Under the pieces are notes generated by a model. It was not told where the DNA came from. It saw only the letters and a program-made list of their open reading frames with translations, and searched no databases. A stretch of 64,000 nt of DNA from Patescibacteria group bacterium (lineage in GTDB: Bacteria > Patescibacteriota > Doudnabacteria > UBA920), in contig DAIMCS010000004.1 of assembly GCA_036726225.1 (NCBI GenBank), positions 21,829-85,828 of the forward strand, read 5' to 3'. Numbering within the stretch: position 1 is the stretch's first letter; each line of letters begins with the position of its first letter. Below are positions 14,785 through 49,200 of this stretch, piece after piece. Position numbers and translations under genes: made by a program.

Positions 14785-15216
14785 ATGCGCAGTTTCGCGG
14801 AAAATAGAAGGGCAAAATTTGACTACGACATTAAAGAAAGCTTTGATGCCGGTTTAGTTTTGTCCGGCGCAGAAGTTAAAAGCATAAAAGGTGGGAATGT
14901 GTCTTTAGAGGGTTCATACGTAAGTGTTTCGGCTAACGGAGCCAATTTAATTAACTGCCATATTGGCCCTTACAAATACGCCCCCAATGAAAAGTATAAC
15001 CCCACACAGCCACGAGCCCTGCTTTTAAACAAACACGAGATAAACCAAATGTTAGGCAAAGAAAAAGGCTTAACCGTTATTCCGTTAGAAATTTATTTAG
15101 GCAAGCGAGGGCTTTTAAAAATTAGAATCGGCTTGGGCAAAGCGCGGAAAAAAACCGACAAAAGGGAATACATAAAAAAACGAGAAGCCCAAAAAGAAAT
15201 TCGCAGCTCATACTAA
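14785..15216 (+). CDS. smpB: SsrA-binding protein SmpB
   Basis: Conserved SmpB segments (NRRAKFDY, GLVLSGAEVKS, CHIGPY) and basic C-terminal tail. Confidence 0.9.
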   Translation: MRSFAENRRAKFDYDIKESFDAGLVLSGAEVKSIKGGNVSLEGSYVSVSANGANLINCHIGPYKYAPNEKYNPTQPRALLLNKHEINQMLGKEKGLTVIPLEIYLGKRGLLKIRIGLGKARKKTDKREYIKKREAQKEIRSSY

Positions 15217-15223
15217 CATACTA

Positions 15224-15636
15224 TCATTTTATCATCTTAACATGGAACAAAAGCAAAATAATTACTTCGAGCAAATAAAAAACAAAATGGATTTATATGT
15301 CCATTTTGTATACCAATTAACTAAAAAATTTCCTAAAGAAGAGCTATACGGATGTACTTCTCAGCTCCGTCGCTCAACCCTTTCAGTTGTTTTAAACTTC
15401 ATTGAAGGCTTTGCAAGAAGAAAAATTGCAGTAAAAAGAAACTTCTGGGAAACTTCCTATGGCTCTTTACAAGAATCCAAATATTTGTTGAATTTTTGCT
15501 TTGTTGAAAAATATATTCAACAAGATGACTATAAAAAGGCGGCCGGAATGGCGGAAGAAATCGGAGCAATGCTTTGGCGTGCCTTGGAGCCTTTGTCTGA
15601 ATGATAAAATGTTAAAATGATACGATGATAAAATGA
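15224..15636. mobile_element. Small cassette: four-helix-bundle protein gene flanked by 13-16 bp terminal inverted repeats (TCATTTTATCATC)
   Basis: Left TCATTTTATCATCTTA at 15224-15239; the reverse complement of the right end (15621-15636) is TCATTTTATCATCGTA. An extra ATGATAAAATG copy overlaps the stop codon at 15601. Confidence 0.45.
15242..15604 (+). CDS. Four-helix-bundle protein (TIGR02436-like, the '23S rRNA intervening-sequence protein' family)
   Basis: About 120 aa with a family-typical core: LYGCTSQLRRSTLSVVLNFIEGFAR. Confidence 0.75.
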   Translation: MEQKQNNYFEQIKNKMDLYVHFVYQLTKKFPKEELYGCTSQLRRSTLSVVLNFIEGFARRKIAVKRNFWETSYGSLQESKYLLNFCFVEKYIQQDDYKKAAGMAEEIGAMLWRALEPLSE

Positions 15637-15854
15637 AACCGAGCACCAAAGAAAAACTATATATTTTAGTAATAATTTTTCTAATTGGCATTAGTGCCCA
15701 GTTCTATTACACTTATAGTTACGAGCCAAATAATAGAATACAAGTTTACTATAACCAGGAGCGGGCGCTAAATACGGAACTCATAAGTCTAATTCGTGAC
15801 GCGGATGAATTTGTATATTTCGGGGTTTACACTTTTACGAGAGCGTATTCGTAA
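15633..15854 (+). pseudogene. N-terminal fragment of a PLD/Nuc-family (HKD) protein, truncated by the GC-rich island
   Basis: TM/signal segment, then LIRDADEFVYFGVYTFT typical of the start of a Nuc-like PLD domain. It stops right where GC content jumps, and the matching C-terminal fragment lies at 22374-22526. Confidence 0.6.
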
Positions 15855-15948
15855 TTCCAGAATGCTTGCCTTTAGCCTAGTAGCAGCGTTGCCTGCTCCT
15901 CCTGTAAATGCGAGTGAATCGGTGAAGCGGCTTTGGCGCGAATCGACT

Positions 15949-16272
15949 TCAATGGTATGAGATTACGTATAAGACTCGGCTTCGACCCAGATCATTCACC
16001 AGCGTGAGATATCGGTGGCCTTTGCGAAACGCCTTTTCATCGACTCCAATGTGCGTCACCGGTTCCGCTTTCCGTCGCTTCAGCCCACGTTTGACCGCGC
16101 GATCCATGATGCCGTGAATTTCATCCCAACTCAGATGAAGCTGTTCAGCAACCGCCTTCTGACTGGCCACCTTCAACCAATCGATCGCCAACCGTTCAAA
16201 CAGTGCGGTGAATCGGCTACCCGGCTCCGCCCAGGAGAGCTTCACCACTTTAACCCCGTGCTCGACCGGCAA
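15949..16272 (-). pseudogene. ISL3-family transposase fragment (HTH region and start of the DDE domain)
   Basis: HIGVDEKAFRKGHRYLTLVNDL matches the start of DDE_Tnp_ISL3; TTG-initiated with a TGA two codons upstream; lacks the catalytic core and C-terminus. Confidence 0.65.
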
Positions 16273-16390
16273 ACTTCAGCGAGCTGAGGATCAGTTTTCT
16301 GTGGGGAGGGAGTGGAAGGCTCTGTTTTGCCGGAAGTTTCGTAGATTGGTTTCAGGAAAGATTGAGGGCTCACCAGTGTGGAGGAAAACA

Positions 16391-16813
16391 CTACGAATTT
16401 CGTCGCTTTATCCCATATTTCTCATACCAACCATATGTCTTGAGCCACTGATACAACGCATCTCGACTAATTCCAAGCAACTGCGACGCCTCTCCAACCT
16501 CTTTGGTTACTTCAAAAACACGGGTAATTAGCCATTGTTTTAAGAGTTTGTCATGCTCTCTAAATTCTAACTTGCCCAACCGAATGTCCTCACCTGTAGG
16601 AGCCTGTATTAAAAAGTCACGACTGCAGCTCTCGACTTGTTCACGAATCTTCATCGCGTGTCTATGGAGCCCATCATGCTCGACGACCCCCTTGAGTTGC
16701 TCCCAAATCTGAAGCTGATTCTTAGCGCTGAGGATGTCCTGAGTCTCCACGTAGGTTCGCGCCAAGTATAAGGAGAGTACGGCCCTCAATTTTGCATCCG
16801 GCATTCGAGGCAT
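16391..16813 (-). CDS. Hypothetical protein with a C-terminal Fis-type helix-turn-helix
   Basis: ASQLLGISRDALYQWLKTYG resembles the HTH_8/Fis DNA-binding motif; no AAA+ motif in the flanking ORFs. Confidence 0.35.
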   Translation of the reverse strand: MPRMPDAKLRAVLSLYLARTYVETQDILSAKNQLQIWEQLKGVVEHDGLHRHAMKIREQVESCSRDFLIQAPTGEDIRLGKLEFREHDKLLKQWLITRVFEVTKEVGEASQLLGISRDALYQWLKTYGWYEKYGIKRRNS

Positions 16814-17917
16814 AAACGAATCTTGCGGTGAAGGACCCTGCTTTCACTCCGCTGTGATGTACTTGACTCGCGATGAAGGTTGCAAAAAACAGCCTCACCA
16901 TCTCGCACGCACAATCGTGCCCTTTCAGTTTGCCCGAGATAGTCATATACCTGCGACAGGAGACAGCGCAATTCTACTTGCGGTATTAGAGCCCCGTCCC
17001 AATGGCCGTCAGCGACAGAACGAGGTATAACCCACCCAAAAAGCGAATTGGCAAGGTGCGTCGTTTCTTTTACAGCCAACCGACCGTGATGCCAGGCATT
17101 CGCCAACTTCTCGTAGGACGACTTGTGATCCTCCAGCCGGTCAGTGGTTTCTTCAGGCCATTTGACGAATCGATTTTCTTCTTTCACATGGAATCCGTTG
17201 TAGGAGCCACCGACATTTCACATCAGTTTAATCAATCACTATTGAAAACCCTTGATTTCACGATGTCAAGAAAACCTAGAGTTTGTCATTTTTGTCGACA
17301 AATCCCTTGAAGCTTTTGAGATGGCATTTGCGATAGTGTTAAGTGTTTCGGGATTGGTTGACCAGAGGCTTCGAGTCCAGCGTTCCTTGAACTTCCTCTG
17401 TCTTTGTAAAGTCCCCCGACGTTTATGGTGCTTTGGCTCGTGTTCTGGCCAGGGCAACATGTTATGAGCTTTCTGGCAGCCTGAAGCGGATGCGGTGTCG
17501 GAAAGCTTAACGTATTTCGCAATTCTTAAGAACAGGCTTTGTCCTTCGCTGGTAAGGAATTCTGTTTGTAATGGATTCGAGACAAAGACTTGACTAGCTC
17601 GTGATTTGCTATTTGCTGAATTGGTCCTTCTGTTGCTGGCAGCGTCGCGCCTTGTAGTGTGTCTGAAACTTGACAGACGTGGACTTAATGCTGTACATTG
17701 AGCGCAAGGTATTGGGATTAATTCATTTGCAAGATACTGCCTATAGTGTTCTTGTCTCTGAGGTAAGAGATTTGGTTCTTGTCGCAGTTCGGGATCTTCG
17801 GCGCTCTCAGGTCTTGCTTCGCCGGCCATGCTCAAACAGGCCACCGTTCCCCAACCCTTCCTTTAGCCCGTACCATTTCCGTTTGACGTACCCAGAAGCA
17901 GAAGGAGGAATCTTGCA

Positions 17918-18427
17918 ATGTTAGGGCGAACTGTGATCTTTACGGCCGCGGGTTTGTTGCTGTTAGGCGGTTTGACAACCACTGCCGGCTTATTAGCCAC
18001 AGCGGTTGCTGTTGGCCAGCAGCGACCCGCATGGCCGCCACCATTACTGCCAGGTTATTCGTATGCACAACCGAGACATCCTGGACATCGGTGGGCGATG
18101 GTTAAATATCGTACACCCGTTAAGTTTCAGGACGCAGCTATAGAGATCTTACTCGACTCGTCTGTTTCCACGCCTGCCCTCCGCAAGGTGGAAATTCGGG
18201 ATGTAGGCAACTCCGTGGTGGCGACGAAAGAGTGGAGCGCTACTACCGTCGAGGGAACTGTTCAAAGTCAGGCTTTCTATCAGTATCGGATCAGGGATAT
18301 CTTCTCAAGTGTTCCGCCACCGAGCGCAGCTGAAACTCGAACTCGAACTTATGTAGTTCGCATATCGGCTTTCGATCGCCGCGAGGTCATAGAAACGATG
18401 GAGTTTCGGCTGGAACTCGTCCCATAG
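17918..18427 (+). CDS. Hypothetical secreted protein (island cargo)
   Basis: Hydrophobic N-terminal signal/TM region; GC-rich codon usage; no motif recognised. Confidence 0.35.
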   Translation: MLGRTVIFTAAGLLLLGGLTTTAGLLATAVAVGQQRPAWPPPLLPGYSYAQPRHPGHRWAMVKYRTPVKFQDAAIEILLDSSVSTPALRKVEIRDVGNSVVATKEWSATTVEGTVQSQAFYQYRIRDIFSSVPPPSAAETRTRTYVVRISAFDRREVIETMEFRLELVP

Positions 18428-18540
18428 GTCGGTTAAAGAACGTTCTTTGGTAGAACGTTCTTTTTTTGGTTCTCAGTTTCCCAAGAGACCACCCTCCTTC
18501 AGCAGCAACAAGCAAGTACAGGTTTAAGAAAATATGGAGC

Positions 18541-19275
18541 ATGGAGCGGAAATTGCGTCTGCTGATTCTAAATGTAATTGTTTTACTTAGCATACTGCTT
18601 GCGAGTTTTTCTCACCGCACGGCAGAAACGCAAACACCGCAAGCTCAGAACAGCCCAGCTTCTACGCGGCCCTATTGCTATTCAATTTTCGGTAGAAGAC
18701 CGATTCCAATGGTTACGTACCAACTAATATTGTCTTCCAAGGTTGCTATGCCTAATGCCTGGACTACTGCAGTATCAAATGCAGCGACCGAATGGAATAT
18801 GGTTGGGACGGCGTTTACGCTAACAGGGGGGAATACGATTATTCTCGCGACGGACGATACTGTGATTCGCGTACCCGGCGGCAACGTTTTGATCCAAAGG
18901 GGAAATGCAATACAAGCCACTATCGCCGGTACAACTATTACGATTTCCGTCGCGCTCACAGATGAAGAATTACGTTCTACCCAAATTGGTGCGAGCGTTG
19001 CAACAACTTCAACCGAATTCAACGAACTTACTCGTGCTGTTTTCAGCAGAGAGATAGTTGTGAACGGACGGGCAAACTGGATACTAACCGGCGCTATACC
19101 CACAAACGGGTTCGACCTTCAAGGCGTGGTTGCGCATGAGTTTGGACATATCGCCGGTTTGGCAAATGTGTCATGTCCTGGGCCCGTTATGCAGGAAACC
19201 ATAGAACCTGGGCAACCACGCAGACTCACGGATGACGATAGACAAGCTCTCAGGCAAATTTATCCATCTAAGTGA
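18541..19275 (+). CDS. Secreted zinc metalloprotease-like protein (HEXXH, metzincin/snapalysin-like)
   Basis: Signal peptide after MERKLRLLILNVIVLLSILLASF; motif VVAHEFGHIAGLAN. The track ORF starts at 18466, but the internal Met at 18541 fits the signal peptide better. Confidence 0.55.
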   Translation: MERKLRLLILNVIVLLSILLASFSHRTAETQTPQAQNSPASTRPYCYSIFGRRPIPMVTYQLILSSKVAMPNAWTTAVSNAATEWNMVGTAFTLTGGNTIILATDDTVIRVPGGNVLIQRGNAIQATIAGTTITISVALTDEELRSTQIGASVATTSTEFNELTRAVFSREIVVNGRANWILTGAIPTNGFDLQGVVAHEFGHIAGLANVSCPGPVMQETIEPGQPRRLTDDDRQALRQIYPSK

Positions 19276-19370
19276 GAGAGACAATTCCCTAATCGAGAAA
19301 ACCCTTCTTGATTCATCGAAGCGTGTTCAATCGTCGCCCCGAAAAAAGGCTCTTCCGGGTTTTTAGTGGG

Positions 19371-19763
19371 TTACGGAGCCAGATCCAGCCCGCCACAGTG
19401 GAAGTAAATCGCATTGATGAAGTTCCTCTGATTGCGGAATCCGCGTGCCGTGTACTTCACCCACTGGATCTTGGCGTTCAAGGATTCGCTGGCCGCATTG
19501 GTGATCCGATGTTTGATAAACGTCAGAATATTTTCGAGACGACGTTTCAGCATGCGACCGGCTTCGATCATTGGCTTCAAGCGGCAGCGTGAAGCCCAGC
19601 TATACCAGCGGTCGAAGAATGACCGTGCCGCTCCGGTATAAACATACGTGAACAGGGTCGTGTAGTACTTGCGGAAGCAGTGGATGGCTGTTGGCCACCG
19701 GTTTGGGCTGCCATTCAGCAGAACGAAGCGTTCGGTAAATCCCTTATCGAAGATGTCGCTCAT
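19371..19763 (-). pseudogene. ISL3-family transposase C-terminal fragment
   Basis: WYSWASRCRLKPM, ITNAASESLNAKIQWVKYTARGFRNQRNFINAIYFHCGGL match the DDE_Tnp_ISL3 C-terminal region. It lies upstream on the strand of the N-terminal fragment, so the two pieces are not contiguous. Confidence 0.65.
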
Positions 19764-19908
19764 GGCAACTTTTTCGGAAGACAGGCTAATTCGTTGCCGT
19801 CGACTGAGGTTGAACTTGCGGATCTATACATTTGGGTGGTCCGGCGATATCCATATAGCGTCGAGCTCTGTCAGCAGTAGCCGGTCCCGTTCCTGCAAGA
19901 CTAATCCA

Positions 19909-21315
19909 TCATTGCCAGTCATCCAGCGCCTCCTCGGTGGACAGCGCCAAGGCGGCCCTGACGTTGATATCGTGCTCGATCTCTGAGCGGGGCATGGCCC
20001 ATCGTCCACGGCATCGCGAAAGCAAATCTCCAGAGGAGGGCAATGCCTTGATCTCCGGCACTTGAATTTGCGACCAGCGATAGGAGCCGCTTTTGACAAT
20101 CATTTGACGGTGAGGCAGGTGGCGGAGCAGTTCAGATAGCTGCTTTCCGCCACCCAGGGCTGATGCCATCTTGCTGGCATCATCGCTGGAAAGCTGAAAC
20201 AGAACGTGCGTGCCGACAGCAAGGATTGCGGCCTTCATCTGCGGTGGATATTGCTCCAAGAATTGGTTGGCCGAGACGACTGAAATGCCGAACTTCCTGG
20301 CTTCGGACAACAGTGTGTCGATGCCGGCGTCGAAGGTCACGAGATTCTGGATTTCGTCGCAATAGAGCGTAAAAACCCTCCTCGATTTTCTTCGAAAAAT
20401 CGCATGCTTGAGCTTGGCAAGAAATAGGCTGCCCAAGGTCGACGCCTGTTCGCCCAAACGGCCTTTGTCCAGGTTGAGAATGATCCAGTAGCCGTTATCC
20501 ATCGCATCGAGTAGAGAAAAACTCGAGTGCTCCTGACCCAAGATGTGGCGAAAGTGCGGGTCCGCGGTAAACGCCGTCGTCTTATTCAACACCGCCTCCC
20601 TAAATGCAGCCTGCATCCCCTCGCTGATTCGGTCATATCGCGTCTCGAAATATCGGCGGACTTCAGGATTGCGAACATGCTCCAGGCATGCTGTCCGAAA
20701 GGCGGAATGAGTCAGCAGCGGTGCGATCTCAAGGAACGTGAGACGGCTTTCCGACAAGACATACAGTGCGTTCCTGAGCAGCTCTTCTGTCCTGGCCCCC
20801 AACGCGTCCAGATGCCAGCGTTGTTTCAGTATCTGTGCGAACTCCGAAATCTGGACGAAATTGGAATCGGCTGCTTTGGGCTGTTCGAGGACATTGAGAC
20901 CGACGGAGTAGCGGGGATCACCCGGTTCGATGACGATCAGCTTTTGAGTTAGGTCCTCATTACGCGATCGTTCCCTTTGCGCGATGGCCGCGAGCAGGAA
21001 GCTTTGAGCGTCGCCATGGAGATCGAAGAAGACAAAACCGCGATTGGCCTCGATGTCCTGCAAAACAAAATGTTTGAGCAGAGTCGACTTGCCCGTGCCC
21101 GTCTTGCCCAACACAGCGATGTGCTCCGGCCGACGAGCGTGCGGTAACAACGACATTGAAGGATGGAGCGGCAGTATGCTGGCCCGTCCCAGTTTGGATC
21201 GTCTCCGCGACGATGCGACAAAAGGAAGTTTTGATGCCGTACTGCTCAATGATGTAGACCGCCTAGCCCGCGATGTTGCGCATTTGGGAATAATCAAGCG
21301 GGGTTTCGAGAGCAA
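19909..21315 (-). CDS. TraD/TraG/VirD4-like conjugative coupling-type P-loop ATPase (soluble form lacking an N-terminal TM domain)
   Basis: Walker A LGKTGTGKST; Walker B-like FVFFDLHGDA; C-terminal LYCDEIQNL...ARKFGISVVSANQ typical of the T4SS DNA-transfer (TraD/HerA-like) ATPase domain. Confidence 0.55.
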   Translation of the reverse strand: MLSKPRLIIPKCATSRARRSTSLSSTASKLPFVASSRRRSKLGRASILPLHPSMSLLPHARRPEHIAVLGKTGTGKSTLLKHFVLQDIEANRGFVFFDLHGDAQSFLLAAIAQRERSRNEDLTQKLIVIEPGDPRYSVGLNVLEQPKAADSNFVQISEFAQILKQRWHLDALGARTEELLRNALYVLSESRLTFLEIAPLLTHSAFRTACLEHVRNPEVRRYFETRYDRISEGMQAAFREAVLNKTTAFTADPHFRHILGQEHSSFSLLDAMDNGYWIILNLDKGRLGEQASTLGSLFLAKLKHAIFRRKSRRVFTLYCDEIQNLVTFDAGIDTLLSEARKFGISVVSANQFLEQYPPQMKAAILAVGTHVLFQLSSDDASKMASALGGGKQLSELLRHLPHRQMIVKSGSYRWSQIQVPEIKALPSSGDLLSRCRGRWAMPRSEIEHDINVRAALALSTEEALDDWQ

Positions 21316-22374
21316 ACACGTTCAGTTGGTCTTTCGCAAATTGCCTTCAGACAACAGTCCCACGTACAACCTGATGGTCAATATCCTCGGCAGTTTCGCT
21401 GAGTTCGAGCGGGAACAAATTCTTGATCGAATGCGCCGAGGCAAACGCCACAAGGTGGAGGTCCGAAAACAATATGTCGGCTGCATCGCTCCTTACGGCT
21501 ATCGATACCAAGTCGGTAGTGCAACGGTCGGCCGCGAAGCTCAGATCGAGATCATCTCCAAGGAAGCCGAAGCCGTAAAGAAGATTTACACTTGGGCATC
21601 GGCGGGCATTTCAATGAAAAGAATTGCACGCAACCTCGACGAATTGGGTGTGCCAACACGAACTGGCAGGCCCGCCTGGGCTGCCAGCATCGTTCATCGG
21701 ATCCTCCATAACGAAACGTATGCTGGTGTCTGGTCCTACTGCAAACTGGAGGCATGCGAACCGATCCGTCCAAAAATCCGCACTACATATAGACGCATTT
21801 CGCGCTCGAGTCGTCGGCGGATGCGCTGGAATCGATTATGTGGACGTCCCTACGGGAGGCTCTTTTGAACCCGAAACACTTGAAGCAGCGAATTCTCAGG
21901 GCGCGAAACCGGATTGCAAAGGAAGGCGCTGCGGCCACTAAGACCCAAACTTCCGTTGAAAAGCTCGACGAAGACACTCGTCTGATCCAGCGCTATCGCT
22001 CCGGTGTCATCACAGCGCAAGAATTAACAAATGGTCTCGAGGCTATAAAAGCTCGTCGTCAGGAGCATCGAGCCGATCATTCCAATAAGCAGAGTCGAAA
22101 TCACCCATGGCCCGGGATTACAAAGATGTGTCGTCGCTTGGCAAAACGACTGGAAGATCCCGCGCCAGCATCGCGCCAACAAATATTCCGGGACTTAATC
22201 GACGAAGCTACGGTCTTTGTCGATGAGGTGAGAATCCGCGGCAAGATTACCGCTGAGTCTCTGAGCGGTAGTACGGTCGTTAACCAAATGGCAGGAACAC
22301 GCGAAAATCTGATGGCGATTCAATCTGCGAATGAATTGTCTTGTGAGATTGCATCATCTCAATCAAGGTTTTAG
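21176..22374 (+). pseudogene. Large serine recombinase, 5'-truncated and frameshifted
   Basis: Frame A (to 21868) has the resolvase-domain C-terminal half (LDRLRDD, DRLARDVAHLGIIKRGFESKHVQLVF, ILGSFAEFEREQILDRMRRGKR) and the recombinase domain. Frame B (21838-22374) has the coiled-coil tail. The catalytic-Ser N-terminus is missing and overlaps the TraD-like gene. Confidence 0.6.
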
Positions 22375-22526
22375 TGACTGAAAAGGCTTATGCTTCGGGT
22401 TCGTTTAACTGGACAGCGGCGGCAACCAATTTGAATGACGAAGTGCTGGAAATAGGTTATGATGAAGCCGTGAGGCAAAAATACCAAAATATTTTGGAAG
22501 AAATATTTAAAAAATATAATAACTAA
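22374..22526 (+). pseudogene. C-terminal fragment of the same PLD/Nuc-family gene (carries the GSxNxT part of the HKD motif)
   Basis: Translation TEKAYASGSFNWTAAATNLNDEVLEIGYDEAVRQKYQNILEEIFKKYNN begins exactly at the island's right edge. Confidence 0.6.
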
Positions 22527-46955: not shown

Positions 46956-47958
46956 AAAACAACTGGCTTACTATTAAATCTAACAAAACTTTAGGCGGAA
47001 CATTGGAGGATTTAAGCTCCTCATCCAGCGCCACTAATTTGTTTAAAAATTCCAAAACTTTTTTGGGAGAAAAGGTTTTGGCAATTTTCTTTAAAACAAA
47101 AAGTTTGCCGCTCTTCCAGCCCGTAATTTCTAAAATTTGGCCGTCCCCAATTTTGCGCGACAAAAAATCTTGCGTGCTGGCCACATTCCTAAACTGCTGG
47201 GAAAGGAGGGCGTTTAACTGAATAACCGTCCCCTTTTCGTCGCTACCGGTCTGATTAAATAAAAATTTATGCAAAAGCTTCATTGCCTGCTGTTTTTTGC
47301 CGTCGGCAATGGAGTTGGTCAGCTCAAACACATCCACTTCGAAAGTTTGGTTCACCAACTGTAAAACATCGTTTTCATTTATTTCCCTGCCATTGGCAAA
47401 AGCCAAAAGTTTTTTTATTTCCGCATCCGCCTGCCAAAGGCTGTAAGCCTCCTCTACTTCCACTACCCTGCCTCCGAATTTGGTTTCTTTGGCGTCGTCC
47501 CTGCCTAAAGCAACCGCCAAACTTTCGGTAGCAGCAGAAGTTATTGTGCCTCCTAAGAGCTTTATCCTATTTGTAATCCATTGGTTTAATTCCCGGCCAT
47601 GCGGCAAACTAAATTCTTGCACCGTGATATTTTTATTTGCCAATAAATCTTTATTTTCCTTTTTTCGCTTGTCTAAAGATTTAATGCTAATGACAATTTG
47701 GTTTGGGGATTTTACCAAGGCTGATAAATCTTCCGGAAGCTTTGGGATTACAGAGTCAAACACAAAAACTTTAGGCTTGGAAAACAAATCTGTCCCAAAT
47801 AGGTCTGAAGCTTGGGGTAAGTTATCTATCTCCACAAATTTAACCAAATCCGCCCTTTTTTCTTTAACCAGGGAGGTTATAAAGTCATTTTTAAAAAAAT
47901 CGTCCGGACCGAGTAATAAATAGAGCATAAATTTATTTGCGTATTTACAATAACACAA
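46954..47958 (-). CDS. holA: DNA polymerase III delta subunit-like (HolA)
   Basis: N-terminal LYLLLGPDDFF and overall delta-subunit clamp-loader layout; the true start is probably MLYLLLG at 47928. Confidence 0.6.
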   Translation of the reverse strand: MCYCKYANKFMLYLLLGPDDFFKNDFITSLVKEKRADLVKFVEIDNLPQASDLFGTDLFSKPKVFVFDSVIPKLPEDLSALVKSPNQIVISIKSLDKRKKENKDLLANKNITVQEFSLPHGRELNQWITNRIKLLGGTITSAATESLAVALGRDDAKETKFGGRVVEVEEAYSLWQADAEIKKLLAFANGREINENDVLQLVNQTFEVDVFELTNSIADGKKQQAMKLLHKFLFNQTGSDEKGTVIQLNALLSQQFRNVASTQDFLSRKIGDGQILEITGWKSGKLFVLKKIAKTFSPKKVLEFLNKLVALDEELKSSNVPPKVLLDLIVSQLF

Positions 47959-48190
47959 ATAAAAAAACCCTGCTATAAGGGCATTTTTGGCGGGCCGCTA
48001 TCCAGGCCTTTAGAATCTTTTGTCGGTATTCCCAAAAAATTCAGATTTGATTCTTTTGTCGGGGCCCCCAAATTTTCATTCCGGAATTTTCAAAGGAAAA
48101 TTTGGGGCAAGGGGCAACGCCCGAAACGAAGTGAGCTTTTTGTCCGCCAAAGAAGGACAAAAACGAACGAAGTGGAGGGCGATTGACCCG

Positions 48191-48266
48191 TGGTGGGTTG
48201 GGTGGGGATCGAACCCACGACAAGCGGATTAAGAGTCCGCTGCTCTACCAACTGAGCTACCAACCC
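48191..48266 (-). tRNA. tRNA-Lys (anticodon CTT)
   Basis: Manual fold: acceptor GGGTTGG/CCAACCC, D-arm GCTC-AGTTGGTA-GAGC, anticodon arm GCGGA-CTCTTAA-TCCGC, T-arm GTGGG-TTCGATC-CCCAC, discriminator A, encoded CCA. Confidence 0.85.
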
Positions 48267-48398
48267 GGAAATATAAATAACCTTGATATCTTACACTAAA
48301 TAAGCAGCTTTTTCAACCCCAGATATTAGGGCTCCCAAAAATTCAATGCATTTTTGGGATGAGGGGCAACGAACGAAGCGAGGACAATTGACCCGATG

Positions 48399-48480
48399 TG
48401 GTGACCCCGGTAAGATTTGAATCCCTCGACTTGGCTCAGGACAGGCTCTACTGCCTCGTGGTTTAAAGCCGGGCGCTGCT
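48399..48480 (-). pseudogene. Degenerate partial copy of tRNA-Arg (pseudo-tRNA)
   Basis: Matches tRNA-Arg from the D-stem 3' side to the CCA end (AGCGCC-C/T-GGCTT..AACCA.GAGGCAGTAG...TTCAAATC.TACCGGGGTCACCA). The 5' acceptor cannot pair, the anticodon loop is mutated to CTTTAAA, and about 26 nt are inserted in the T-arm. Confidence 0.4.
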
Positions 48481-48508
48481 CCCCCGCCCGACTCGCTTTA
48501 GTATTATA

Positions 48509-48585
48509 TGGTGACCCCGGTAGGATTTGAACCTACTGCCTCCTGGTTCGAAGCCAGGCGCTCTATCCAAATGAGCTACGGAGTC
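48509..48585 (-). tRNA. tRNA-Arg (anticodon TCG)
   Basis: Manual fold: acceptor GACTCCG/CGGGGTC (one G-U), D-arm GCTC...GAGC, anticodon arm CCTGG-CTTCGAA-CCAGG, T-arm GTAGG-TTCAAAT-CCTAC, discriminator A, CCA encoded. Confidence 0.85.
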
Positions 48586-48825
48586 ATGTCAGGCGAGTCG
48601 GGCGGGTATCCAACATGAGCTACGGGTGCATGCCGCATTTTTCTTTTGGCGTTCCCATATAGTATAGCTAAAAAAAGCAAAATTGAAAATTCAACCCCGT
48701 TAGAAAATTCTTCAATTCTTTTGGATAATTTAAAGGTTTTTTACCCAAAAATAATTCAAAAAACAGAAAATCTATAAAAAAATTTTCTTATAGGGTCAAT
48801 TTTTGCTTTTCCTTATAAGCTAATT

Positions 48826-49200
48826 TTATTCAGGACTTTGCAGCAATCCGCTGCTTTCGTCGTAGTTTGACGTTCCTTCGCCTAAAGGCGCGCTCTCCTC
48901 AACTGGCGCCCCAAGGTTAAACGGATTCCTGCGAATCCCGCCCGTCGGCCTGAAATTTTCCGCGTCCTGTATGCGTTTTACAACCTGGTTATAGTTGTCA
49001 AAATTTATCCTTACTCCCTTAACCGCCACCATGGGAGCGGCTTCTTCGTTGAAATTTAAAATTATATCCACTGACTTTTTTATCTGGATGGCTTCAAAAA
49101 TCAACAAAATTATAAACACCACAAAAAACAACAGGCTTAAATTTTTGGTCAGCTGTACAAGAAAATGCTTGGGATTTATAGAAAATTTAAGTTTAGCCAT
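48826..49200 (-). CDS. Small TM protein at the distal end of the pilMNO operon (PilP-like or minor component, hypothetical)
   Basis: Single TM helix then a periplasmic domain; operon position only. Confidence 0.3.
   Translation of the reverse strand: MAKLKFSINPKHFLVQLTKNLSLLFFVVFIILLIFEAIQIKKSVDIILNFNEEAAPMVAVKGVRINFDNYNQVVKRIQDAENFRPTGGIRRNPFNLGAPVEESAPLGEGTSNYDESSGLLQSPE

Follow-up and report, generated by a model that had tools for sequence, protein, structure and literature searches.

A 64,000-nucleotide (nt) stretch of contig DAIMCS010000004.1 from a Patescibacteria group bacterium (Candidatus Doudnabacteria), hereafter the window, contains a tRNA gene nested in a copy of itself: an intact tRNA-Arg(TCG) lies inside the D-loop of an older, decaying tRNA-Arg(TCG) copy. 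The inserted segment measures 124 nt, 77 of which are tRNA, and consists of the left arm of a 14-base-pair (bp) inverted repeat (IR-L), the inner tRNA-Arg and the right arm of the repeat (IR-R). This cassette sits between D-loop positions 21 and 22 in the same orientation as the resident gene; all features of the locus are on the minus strand, and coordinates are window positions throughout. Comparison with 40 species-level Doudnabacteria loci fetched via the neighbouring holA gene (designated by L numbers) makes it probable, in our judgement, that the tRNA gene is recurrently replaced in this group by an insertion cassette that is bounded by inverted repeats (IRs), complements the gene it interrupts and is expressed from the old promoter, through an insertion mechanism that we infer. 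Standard tRNA finders detect the inner gene alone and overlook the nested architecture, which should be borne in mind when such genomes are annotated.

The outer gene is recovered as a 23-nt piece upstream and an 84-nt piece downstream of the cassette. When joined, the two pieces align to tRNA-Arg genes along their whole length, the 5' piece corresponding to tRNA positions 1-22 and the 3' piece starting at about position 22 and running to about 76-77. Since these positions complement each other, the pieces are the two halves of one split tRNA-Arg(TCG) gene. The initial annotation, made from the sequence alone, had described a 23-nt copy of a tRNA 5' end and a degenerate duplicate of tRNA-Arg on the other side. 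Both are real, but the former is not a separate leftover and the latter not a tandem duplicate, as they are the halves of a single gene around the cassette. Homology of the downstream piece to tRNA-Arg, and its degeneracy, are clear from the whole-length alignment and from the repeat finder, which matches it to the inner tRNA in one block of 26 nt (92% identity) and another of 30 nt (87%). In addition, seven relatives with an un-nested and intact tRNA-Arg(TCG) gene (L016, L023, L033, L036, L040, L043 and L048) carry an acceptor strand of the GCACCCG type, as does the outer 5' half.

The outer gene is a decaying pseudogene. Its junction carries 3-4 extra nt, its anticodon stem (CCCGG/CCACG) has two mispairs, and its anticodon loop reads CTTTAAA (48462-48468) in place of CTTCGAA, as had been noticed at first reading, which gives the anticodon TTA. 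Its T-stem is broken by an insert that had been put at 26 nt and that the alignment gives as 25 nt. In its final ~24 nt the outer gene agrees almost completely with the inner one, unlike the GCACCCG type, which leaves two acceptor mispairs against GCACCCG; this inner-like 3' end looks like the result of gene conversion. ARAGORN found no tRNA in 28 in-silico junction variants of the window's outer gene, with or without the T-arm insert, nor did its intron and low-score modes yield a tRNA from this gene. Across the full 64-kb window it called two tRNAs only, the inner tRNA-Arg(tcg) and the neighbouring tRNA-Lys(ctt), to which the Rfam tRNA model gave 70.6 and 74.6 bits, and no third tRNA-like match appeared in Rfam between 47000 and 50000 even at E<=10. 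Thus the two expected tRNAs were recovered, the pseudogene or low-score match expected beside them was not found, and neither ARAGORN, Rfam nor in-silico splicing produced a well-formed third tRNA. A class II or suppressor tRNA with a UUA anticodon in the CTTTAAA loop was considered for the outer gene and rejected, as the anticodon, T- and acceptor stems are unpaired.

The inner tRNA-Arg matches the Rfam model over its full length at 70.6 bits against a gathering threshold of 29, is assigned the anticodon TCG by ARAGORN and carries the Arg identity element A20 in its D-loop, as read from the sequence (ATTTGGATA); it is presumed to be a functional gene. It is bracketed, as the initial annotation had it, by a perfect 14-nt inverted pair, CCCGCCCGACTCGC (48483-48496) and GCGAGTCGGGCGGG (48593-48606), which the repeat finder places 96 nt apart. 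These terminal inverted repeats match at 14 of 14 positions, coincide exactly with the two termini of the inserted segment and measure 12-16 nt in relatives. Allowing up to two mismatches, the two arms are the only copies in the window, against a chance expectation of 0.17, and none of 100 shuffles reached two copies; a chance origin of the repeat is excluded. The predicted energy of the IR duplex is -32.2 kcal/mol, and the paired arms appear in the predicted minimum-free-energy fold of the transcript. An assembly artefact is also excluded, because a 731-nt region of the locus is 100% identical across independently assembled contigs of JGI, ENA and Logan samples; the number of separate metagenome assemblies that agree at the locus is at least five.

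The position of promoter-like sequences suggests how the inner gene may be expressed. In un-nested relatives, TATAAT lies 15-52 nt upstream of the tRNA; in nested relatives, a -10-like box is found upstream of the outer 5' half only, and no such box comes nearer than 81 nt upstream of the inner tRNA. Because -10-like boxes sit only upstream of the outer 5' half, the inner gene probably uses the old promoter, and such use would explain why inner and outer genes are co-oriented. On this basis we infer that the site at 48661-48689 would act as promoter of the whole nested unit. The best promoter-like match of the region lies at 48503-48531 on the minus strand (TTCAAA-17-TATAAT, 10/12), covers the inner T-loop and the spacer after CCA, and would read into IR-R and the outer 3' half; this match may be due to chance, the spacer not being conserved in L014 or L018.

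Recurrence of the nested layout

Nesting is found in at least 10 of the 40 loci. The arrangement of 5' half, IR, full tRNA-Arg, IR and 3' half is present in L009, L014 (twice), L018, L024, L027, L028, L032, L035 and L037, with one outer gene of L014 bearing cassettes in both its D-loop and its T-loop, and L012, L021 and L045 have an IR-flanked tRNA-Arg whose outer halves have faded. Insertion occurred at D-loop positions 21/22 in the window, L018, L024 and L027, elsewhere in the D-loop in L009, L014 and L032, in the anticodon loop in L028 and L035, and in the T-loop for the second cassette of L014. By plain count, inner and outer genes are co-oriented in all 12 cassettes with recognizable outer fragments. 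Relatives had been suggested as the place to look for an integrated element; what they contain is recurrent nested cassettes instead of an island. Further holA relatives (L176-L179) have a plain tRNA-Arg or no tRNA and add no nested case. Many of the loci keep a tRNA-Arg(TCG)/tRNA-Lys(CTT) pair upstream of holA, in which tRNA-Lys, and in some cases tRNA-Arg too, changes its orientation relative to holA among L009-L048 (Arg+/Lys-, +/+ and -/-); these flips imply recurrent small inversions at the locus.

The inverted repeats recur around 15 independent cassettes and fall into mutually unrelated sequence families (CCCGCCCGACTCGC, CCCTGTCGCTCATG, CCCCGTCACTTCTGG, CCCCACACTTTC, CCCCGCTAAATT and CCCCGCCCTTTCTT), every one of which starts with CCC at its outer end. 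The IR-L arm sequence of the window is also present in L014, L024 and L163, a contig described below, with close variants in L018, L027 and L045, and a CTGAC spacer is common to the window, L014, L024, L027 and L163. In the cassettes of relatives, IR-R usually begins 0-2 nt past CCA, overlapping it in L009 and L028, and IR-L stops 4-7 nt ahead of the tRNA 5' end. The tRNA-Lys gene is never IR-flanked among the relatives' 37 Lys genes, in all of which the longest perfect flanking repeat is at most 8 nt, versus 12-16 nt around eight tRNA-Arg cassettes. The helix is missing in about half of the relatives. Moreover, since the IR has decayed in L018 and L012 with the inner tRNA still intact, the helix is not required for persistence of the tRNA.

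Nested, IR-flanked and plain loci are intermixed in a neighbour-joining HolA tree. The nearest neighbour of the window, L010, is plain, and the nested L035 has as its sister L033, a plain locus that carries a 3' relic downstream; the window and L018, which agree in IR family, insertion site and outer T-arm insert, stand in separate parts of the tree. The outer halves may belong to different alleles, as in the window, where a GCACCCG-type 5' half is combined with a 3' half ending CGGGGTC, and in L009, where a GACTCCG-type 5' half is combined with a 3' half ending CGGGTGC. In L018 the outer anticodon arm is identical to the inner one, so that inner-to-outer gene conversion is visible there. The outer gene of L035 is without its middle and that of L032 without its 5' half.

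These patterns bear on an explanation in which the IR would be a pre-tRNA processing helix, formed between leader and trailer in one family of alleles, and the nesting would have arisen when recombination, homologous or illegitimate, copied such alleles into resident genes following DNA uptake, leaving the outer halves as scars. It accords with a helix geometry relative to the tRNA ends that is constant across unrelated IR sequences, with the conservation of the sequence of IR family 1 across distant lineages, with the scatter of nested states on the HolA tree, and with the evident conversion between inner and outer genes (the L018 anticodon arm and the window's outer 3' end). Nevertheless, homologous replacement should swap the gene rather than nest it, the left homology arm would be only about 22 nt, and a helix that about half of the relatives lack and that has decayed in L018 and L012 is evidently unneeded. 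We thus regard this explanation as unlikely.

Further evidence comes from outside the holA loci. A pattern scan of metagenomes for IR-L followed by IR-R gave at least 119 matches with a loose pattern; among the matches listed, 115 loci are without a tRNA, most of them looking like chance, and the sole informative one is L163, an unrelated contig of 1.1 kb with a guanine-plus-cytosine (GC) content of 36%. L163 has the window's IR and spacer (CCCGCCCGACTCGCCTGAC ... GACGAGTCAGGCGGGCGGG) around a tRNA-Arg(TCT), which interrupts another tRNA-Arg(TCT) gene between positions 35 and 36 in its anticodon. Removal of the segment CCCGCCC...GGGCGGG restores CTTC/TAA exactly (the slash marks the junction), and L163 without the cassette and a small D-loop hairpin is called tRNA-Arg(TCT) by ARAGORN. 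Cassette removal from L027 restores GGATA/GAGCG exactly as well, so these insertions are precise and without target-site duplication. A scan of viral contigs for the IR plus spacer gave eight matches, all of them chance, within high-GC phage genes and with no tRNA. The minus strand of L163:1-150, some 250 nt downstream from the nested tRNA-Arg(TCT), has a truncated open reading frame (ORF) starting MPQAKCKICDKEFYVKPSHQRRGYGKYCSRDCQ..., with a repeated CxxC/zinc-finger-like motif; in Pfam it gave weak acetyltransferase noise only.

Exact junctions of this kind could also be read as a sign of an event at the RNA level, in which the cassette would be a tRNA-bearing intervening sequence whose arms pair, whose inner tRNA is excised and whose outer halves are joined, or held together, as a second tRNA-like RNA. 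No tRNA nucleotides are lost or duplicated at the junctions of L163 and L027, ARAGORN calls the L018 and L163 outer genes tRNA-Arg once all inserts have been removed in silico, and every insertion point is in a tRNA loop. In addition, the arm changes of L027 and L018 are C-to-U opposite G, which can wobble-pair on the tRNA-sense strand alone, and the window and L018 have a conserved outer T-arm insert in common. The hallmark of split tRNAs in Nanoarchaeum is a pair of GC-rich complementary sequences of 12-14 nt, one after the 5' half and one before the 3' half, and the cassette flanks match it. However, the window's outer gene is unable to make a tRNA, given its two acceptor and two anticodon-stem mispairs, its TTA and its broken T-stem; in the window and L009 the two outer halves derive from different alleles, and those of L035 and L032 are incomplete. 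Moreover, the junctions face each other at the base of the helix with no bulge-helix-bulge motif, an Rfam search of the locus gave no intron or ribozyme, and we know of no bacterial enzyme set for such tRNA splicing. For these reasons an RNA-level origin seems very improbable.

The relatives also carry piled-up relics of tRNA-Arg, mostly 3' halves downstream of the gene (L014, L027, L028 and L033); in L028, the tRNA and the 42-nt 3' fragment that comes next each have GAAGTGAYGGGG after them. In the window, the direct 3' repeat of tRNA-Arg has copy starts 110 nt apart, with no element between. The initial annotation proposed that the fragments are attachment-site (att) footprints of repeated integrase-driven integration and excision, or else products of tandem duplication and decay; the IR would then be incidental. 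That the locus is a hot spot of rearrangement is supported, and such an origin could account for the direct repeats of tRNA-Arg 3' parts downstream in these four loci, for the near identity of outer and inner 3' ends in the window, for the Arg/Lys orientations relative to holA, whose variation speaks for frequent recombination, and for the presence of a mobile island with a serine recombinase elsewhere in the window. However, neither the window nor any of the 40 relatives has an integrase or island at the locus: ORFs of at least 60 amino acids (aa) with recombinase features are absent from 47958-48826, and the nearest recombinase gene (21044-21868) is ~27 kb away. Furthermore, duplication of att sites yields direct 3' repeats on either side of an island, and not an upstream 5' half, an IR hugging the tRNA or D-loop breakpoints. 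The two fragments complement each other as halves of a single gene, a chance IR is excluded, and inverted repeats recur around 15 independent cassettes. The integrase and tandem-duplication origins are thus both improbable for this locus.

Cargo-free GC-rich hairpins are found in the relics too. They sit precisely in tRNA sequences, with no tRNA nucleotides lost or duplicated, at L033:2640-2720, L027:2660-2760, the outer D-loop of L163, L014:2030-2075, L024:2760-2800 and L009:2195-2235 (examples are CCTGCCTGCCGGCAGGCAGG, TCCGCCAAGGGCGGA and CCCCGTTGAATTCGCC-AAA-GGCGAAATTCAACCAGGG). The L014 and L024 hairpins are apparently homologous, differ at several stem positions and both still pair. Cargo-free hairpins in L014, L024, L027, L033 and L163 show that hairpin insertion into tRNA sequences is common in the group. 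At L027:2598-2615 and L033:2626-2643, the anticodon arm of an outer or relic tRNA-Arg is replaced by a conserved 18-nt near-palindrome, TCCCGAYGTRCATCGGGA, which ARAGORN reads as an 8-nt loop with a 4-base 'anticodon'. Relics are not confined to tRNA-Arg, because L048:1560-1700 (minus strand) has a 13-nt tRNA-Lys 5' fragment, GGGTCGGTAGCTC, followed by GC-rich hairpins, ~145 nt upstream of the intact tRNA-Lys.

A candidate mechanism of replacement from within

Replacement of the resident gene by a self-complementing cassette could have proceeded as follows. A promoter-less cassette, made of a GC-rich 14-bp IR around a complete tRNA-Arg(UCG), would insert in the D-loop of the resident gene, whose promoter would then transcribe the inner gene. 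In the transcript, the IR arms would pair as a 14-bp leader-trailer helix that isolates the inner pre-tRNA as a folding domain, and ordinary end-processing by RNase P and 3' trimming would free it, possibly after a first cut of the helix by a double-strand-specific RNase. At the level of DNA, the invading molecules would be of hairpin type, with terminal inverted repeats, and would enter the single-stranded loops of tRNA genes. In small genomes with tRNA genes that are presumably single-copy, an insertion would be viable only if it brought the same working tRNA in an expressed orientation; the surviving cassettes would be cognate and co-oriented because selection leaves only self-complementing insertions. 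Repeated insertion, together with gene conversion or deletion between inner and outer copies, would eventually give rise to the piled tRNA-Arg relics.

Several points weigh against this mechanism. No insertion enzyme was identified in the window, and there is no second IR copy in its 64 kb, so that mobility is suggested by comparative patterns only. One IR family encloses a 77-nt Arg, a 75-nt Arg and an Arg-TCT cargo, for which a model of an element with fixed cargo is inadequate. The features shared by the window and L018 despite their distance on the tree imply either that the event is old and was followed by many losses or that it spread horizontally. The T-arm insert is identical at 23 of 25 positions (92%) between the window and L018 (2591-2615), although the cassette spacers cannot be aligned, and such conservation beside scrambled spacers hints at a constraint outside the model. 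In addition, the tight placement, in most cassettes, of IR-R 0-2 nt after CCA, with IR-L 4-7 nt before the 5' end, would fit a purely RNA-level role too. As to the T-arm insert itself, it is single-copy in the window, which does not make it a high-copy repeat, and a fragment of a class II tRNA D-arm was dropped by eye, G18 and G19 being absent. Its sequence (GCCTGTCCTGAGCSAAGTCGARGGA) resembles the reverse complement of IR-L plus spacer, and a similar motif, interrupted by a hairpin, adjoins tRNA-Lys(TTT) at L177:1445-1490.

A broader view can be put forward only tentatively, namely that bacteria of the Candidate Phyla Radiation (CPR) may harbour undescribed tiny hairpin-bounded elements that invade tRNA loops, a subclass of which would carry a full replacement for the tRNA that it destroys, take over the old promoter, spread between lineages, repeatedly overwrite tRNA-Arg and leave stacked relics. 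To our knowledge, tRNA genes that are interrupted, split or nested count as a speciality of archaea and eukaryotes, and the tRNA-gene interruptions known in bacteria are group I introns and islands borne by integrases. No description of a bacterial tRNA nested in its own gene was found in the full-text literature searched, which is not proof of absence, and there is a substantial chance that the cassette represents a new class of self-complementing element. If so, the overwriting of tRNA genes from within by an IR cassette with the same tRNA would be a new route of gene turnover, and the combination of insertion with complementary flanking helices would offer a natural model for the origin of split and intron-bearing tRNA genes. 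Moreover, recurrent helices of 12-16 bp at tRNA ends would provide a testable substrate of pre-tRNA processing in hosts with minimal RNA-processing machinery.

Features of the locus and its surroundings

The features of the locus are collected in Table 1. A trailer of ~35 nt, CGGGTCAAT..CTTCGTTCGTT on the tRNA strand, is repeated 3' of both tRNA-Lys and the pseudogene copy, as noted from the start; the repeat finder aligns the two copies in pairs of 82%, 100% and 79% identity, and both are followed by A/T-rich hairpins (also at 48333-48359). Related 'CGAACGA' trailers, with a palindrome abutting the CCA of tRNA-Lys, are present in L023 and L027.

Table 1. Positions of features at the nested tRNA-Arg locus
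Feature	Position	Strand	Remarks
Promoter-like site TTTTCA-17-TATACT	48661-48689	-	5' of outer 5' half; 9/12 consensus matches
Outer tRNA-Arg(TCG), 5' half, GCACCCGTAGCTCATGTTGGATA	48607-48629	-	23 nt; tRNA positions 1-22; acceptor 5' strand, D-stem 5' strand and D-loop
IR-L, left arm of 14-bp inverted repeat, CCCGCCCGACTCGC on tRNA strand	48593-48606	-	
Spacer CTGACAT between IR-L and inner tRNA	48586-48592	-	7 nt
Inner tRNA-Arg(TCG), intact	48509-48585	-	CCA end encoded; ARAGORN; RF00005 70.6 bits, E 1e-14
Spacer TATAATACTAAA between inner tRNA and IR-R	48497-48508	-	12 nt
IR-R, right arm of 14-bp inverted repeat, GCGAGTCGGGCGGG on tRNA strand	48483-48496	-	
Outer tRNA-Arg, 3' half, decayed	48399-48482	-	84 nt; D-stem 3' strand to CCA, terminating ...GGGGTCACCA
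T-arm insert of outer gene, AGCCTGTCCTGAGCCAAGTCGAGGG	48423-48447	-	25 nt
tRNA-Lys(CTT), neighbour gene	48191-48266	-	Own promoter-like site 48288-48316
Trailer repeat 3' of tRNA-Lys	48162-48196	-	Partner 48368-48401 follows outer Arg 3' half

The locus is flanked by a type IV pilus cluster (pilB/C/M and small pilN/O-like ORFs) and holA, and then by PadR and PspC genes, in a genome of about 42% GC. Homologues close to this holA bear Candidatus Doudnabacteria labels, which places the window in a CPR bacterium. Elsewhere in the window, a stretch at 15000-22400 has 49-54% GC and encodes a TrwB/VirD4-like coupling ATPase and a large serine recombinase with Resolvase and Recombinase domains; the ORFs at 19909-21315 (minus strand) and 21044-21868 (plus strand) overlap on opposite strands. 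This stretch is probably a conjugative or mobile element that integrated and has partly degraded, and no tRNA adjoins it. Some relatives encode a protein of ~245 aa with an N-terminal helix-turn-helix and a C-terminal invariant 'LYWAEGSK...NSDP' motif (L010:2095-2847, L014:2185-2913, L028:2083-2841 and L180-L183), whose homologues across CPR phyla number more than 1000, with identities of about 60%. Its gene ends 6-19 nt before tRNA-Lys(CTT) in seven of the seven loci where it was located; no family or fold match was found for its C-terminal domain, and the protein is absent from the window.

Comparison with known systems

The closest parallels in tRNA architecture are the split and multi-intron tRNAs of archaea (Nanoarchaeum equitans, Thermoproteales and the tri-split tRNAs of Caldivirga), in which the D-, anticodon or T-loop is likewise interrupted, GC-rich sequences of 12-14 nt that follow the 5' piece and precede the 3' piece are complementary to each other, and interruptions are gained or lost among close relatives. 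Unlike these, the present case is found in a bacterial host, its intervening segment holds a complete copy of the same tRNA, and the interrupted gene is decaying instead of being rebuilt. The geometry also differs. The archaeal splicing endonuclease acts on a bulge-helix-bulge, or its relaxed hBH/HBh' variant, with splice sites in 3-nt bulges and a 4-bp helix between them; no such motif is found in the window, L027 or L163, where the two junctions sit right across from one another at the IR helix base, and the only bulge seen in relatives (AGGC) is internal to the intervening segment and absent in the window. Joined exons give a functional cloverleaf in silico for L018 and L163 only, and not in the window. 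Among the nine window ORFs scanned there is no match to EndA or an RNA ligase, and no group I intron is indicated. Its catalytic core (P3-P9) would be expected in the anticodon loop, but Rfam at E<=10 has only the two tRNAs plus noise between 47000 and 50000, and the insert is in the D-loop.

A second parallel is with integrative elements that target tRNA genes, such as phages, integrative and conjugative elements, genomic islands and the pNOB8-type elements, which have been proposed to disrupt archaeal tRNA genes (PMC3293823). As in those systems, the insert in the tRNA gene supplies sequence that saves its function, and displaced tRNA fragments remain and can accumulate. In contrast to them, the unit described here has no integrase or island and is only about 124 nt long, brings a whole tRNA instead of its 3' part, is bounded by inverted and not direct repeats, and leaves both halves of the old gene in place.

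In its terminal IR or hairpin architecture, small size, non-coding nature and precise insertion, the cassette resembles miniature inverted-repeat transposable elements and repetitive extragenic palindromic (REP) sequences, including REPINs, which are mobilized by the RAYT/HUH enzymes. The missing target-site duplication (none in L163 and L027, and at most one extra G in the window) is compatible with HUH-type single-strand transposition, and the cargo-free GC-rich hairpins in the tRNA relics of L014, L024, L027, L033 and L163 are similar in style. These elements nevertheless differ from the cassette, whose cargo would be a functional tRNA and whose target is the cognate tRNA gene. Moreover, the sequences on the left of the insertions differ (GGATA, CTTC and TTG directly before the junction, and also TTCTTG and TTTTA), there is one copy only in 64 kb, and no transposase is seen near the locus.

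Lastly, the intervening sequences of 23S and 16S rRNA are hairpin insertions in a loop of a structural RNA, possible substrates of RNase III and patchy among relatives, as is the cassette, and CPR bacteria, a group known for insertions in RNA genes, are reported to have them in abundance in rRNA. Here, however, the target is a tRNA gene, the cargo is a tRNA, and the interrupted RNA is apparently non-functional. Taken together, the nested cassette works in part like several of these systems, while departing from each of them in defining features.

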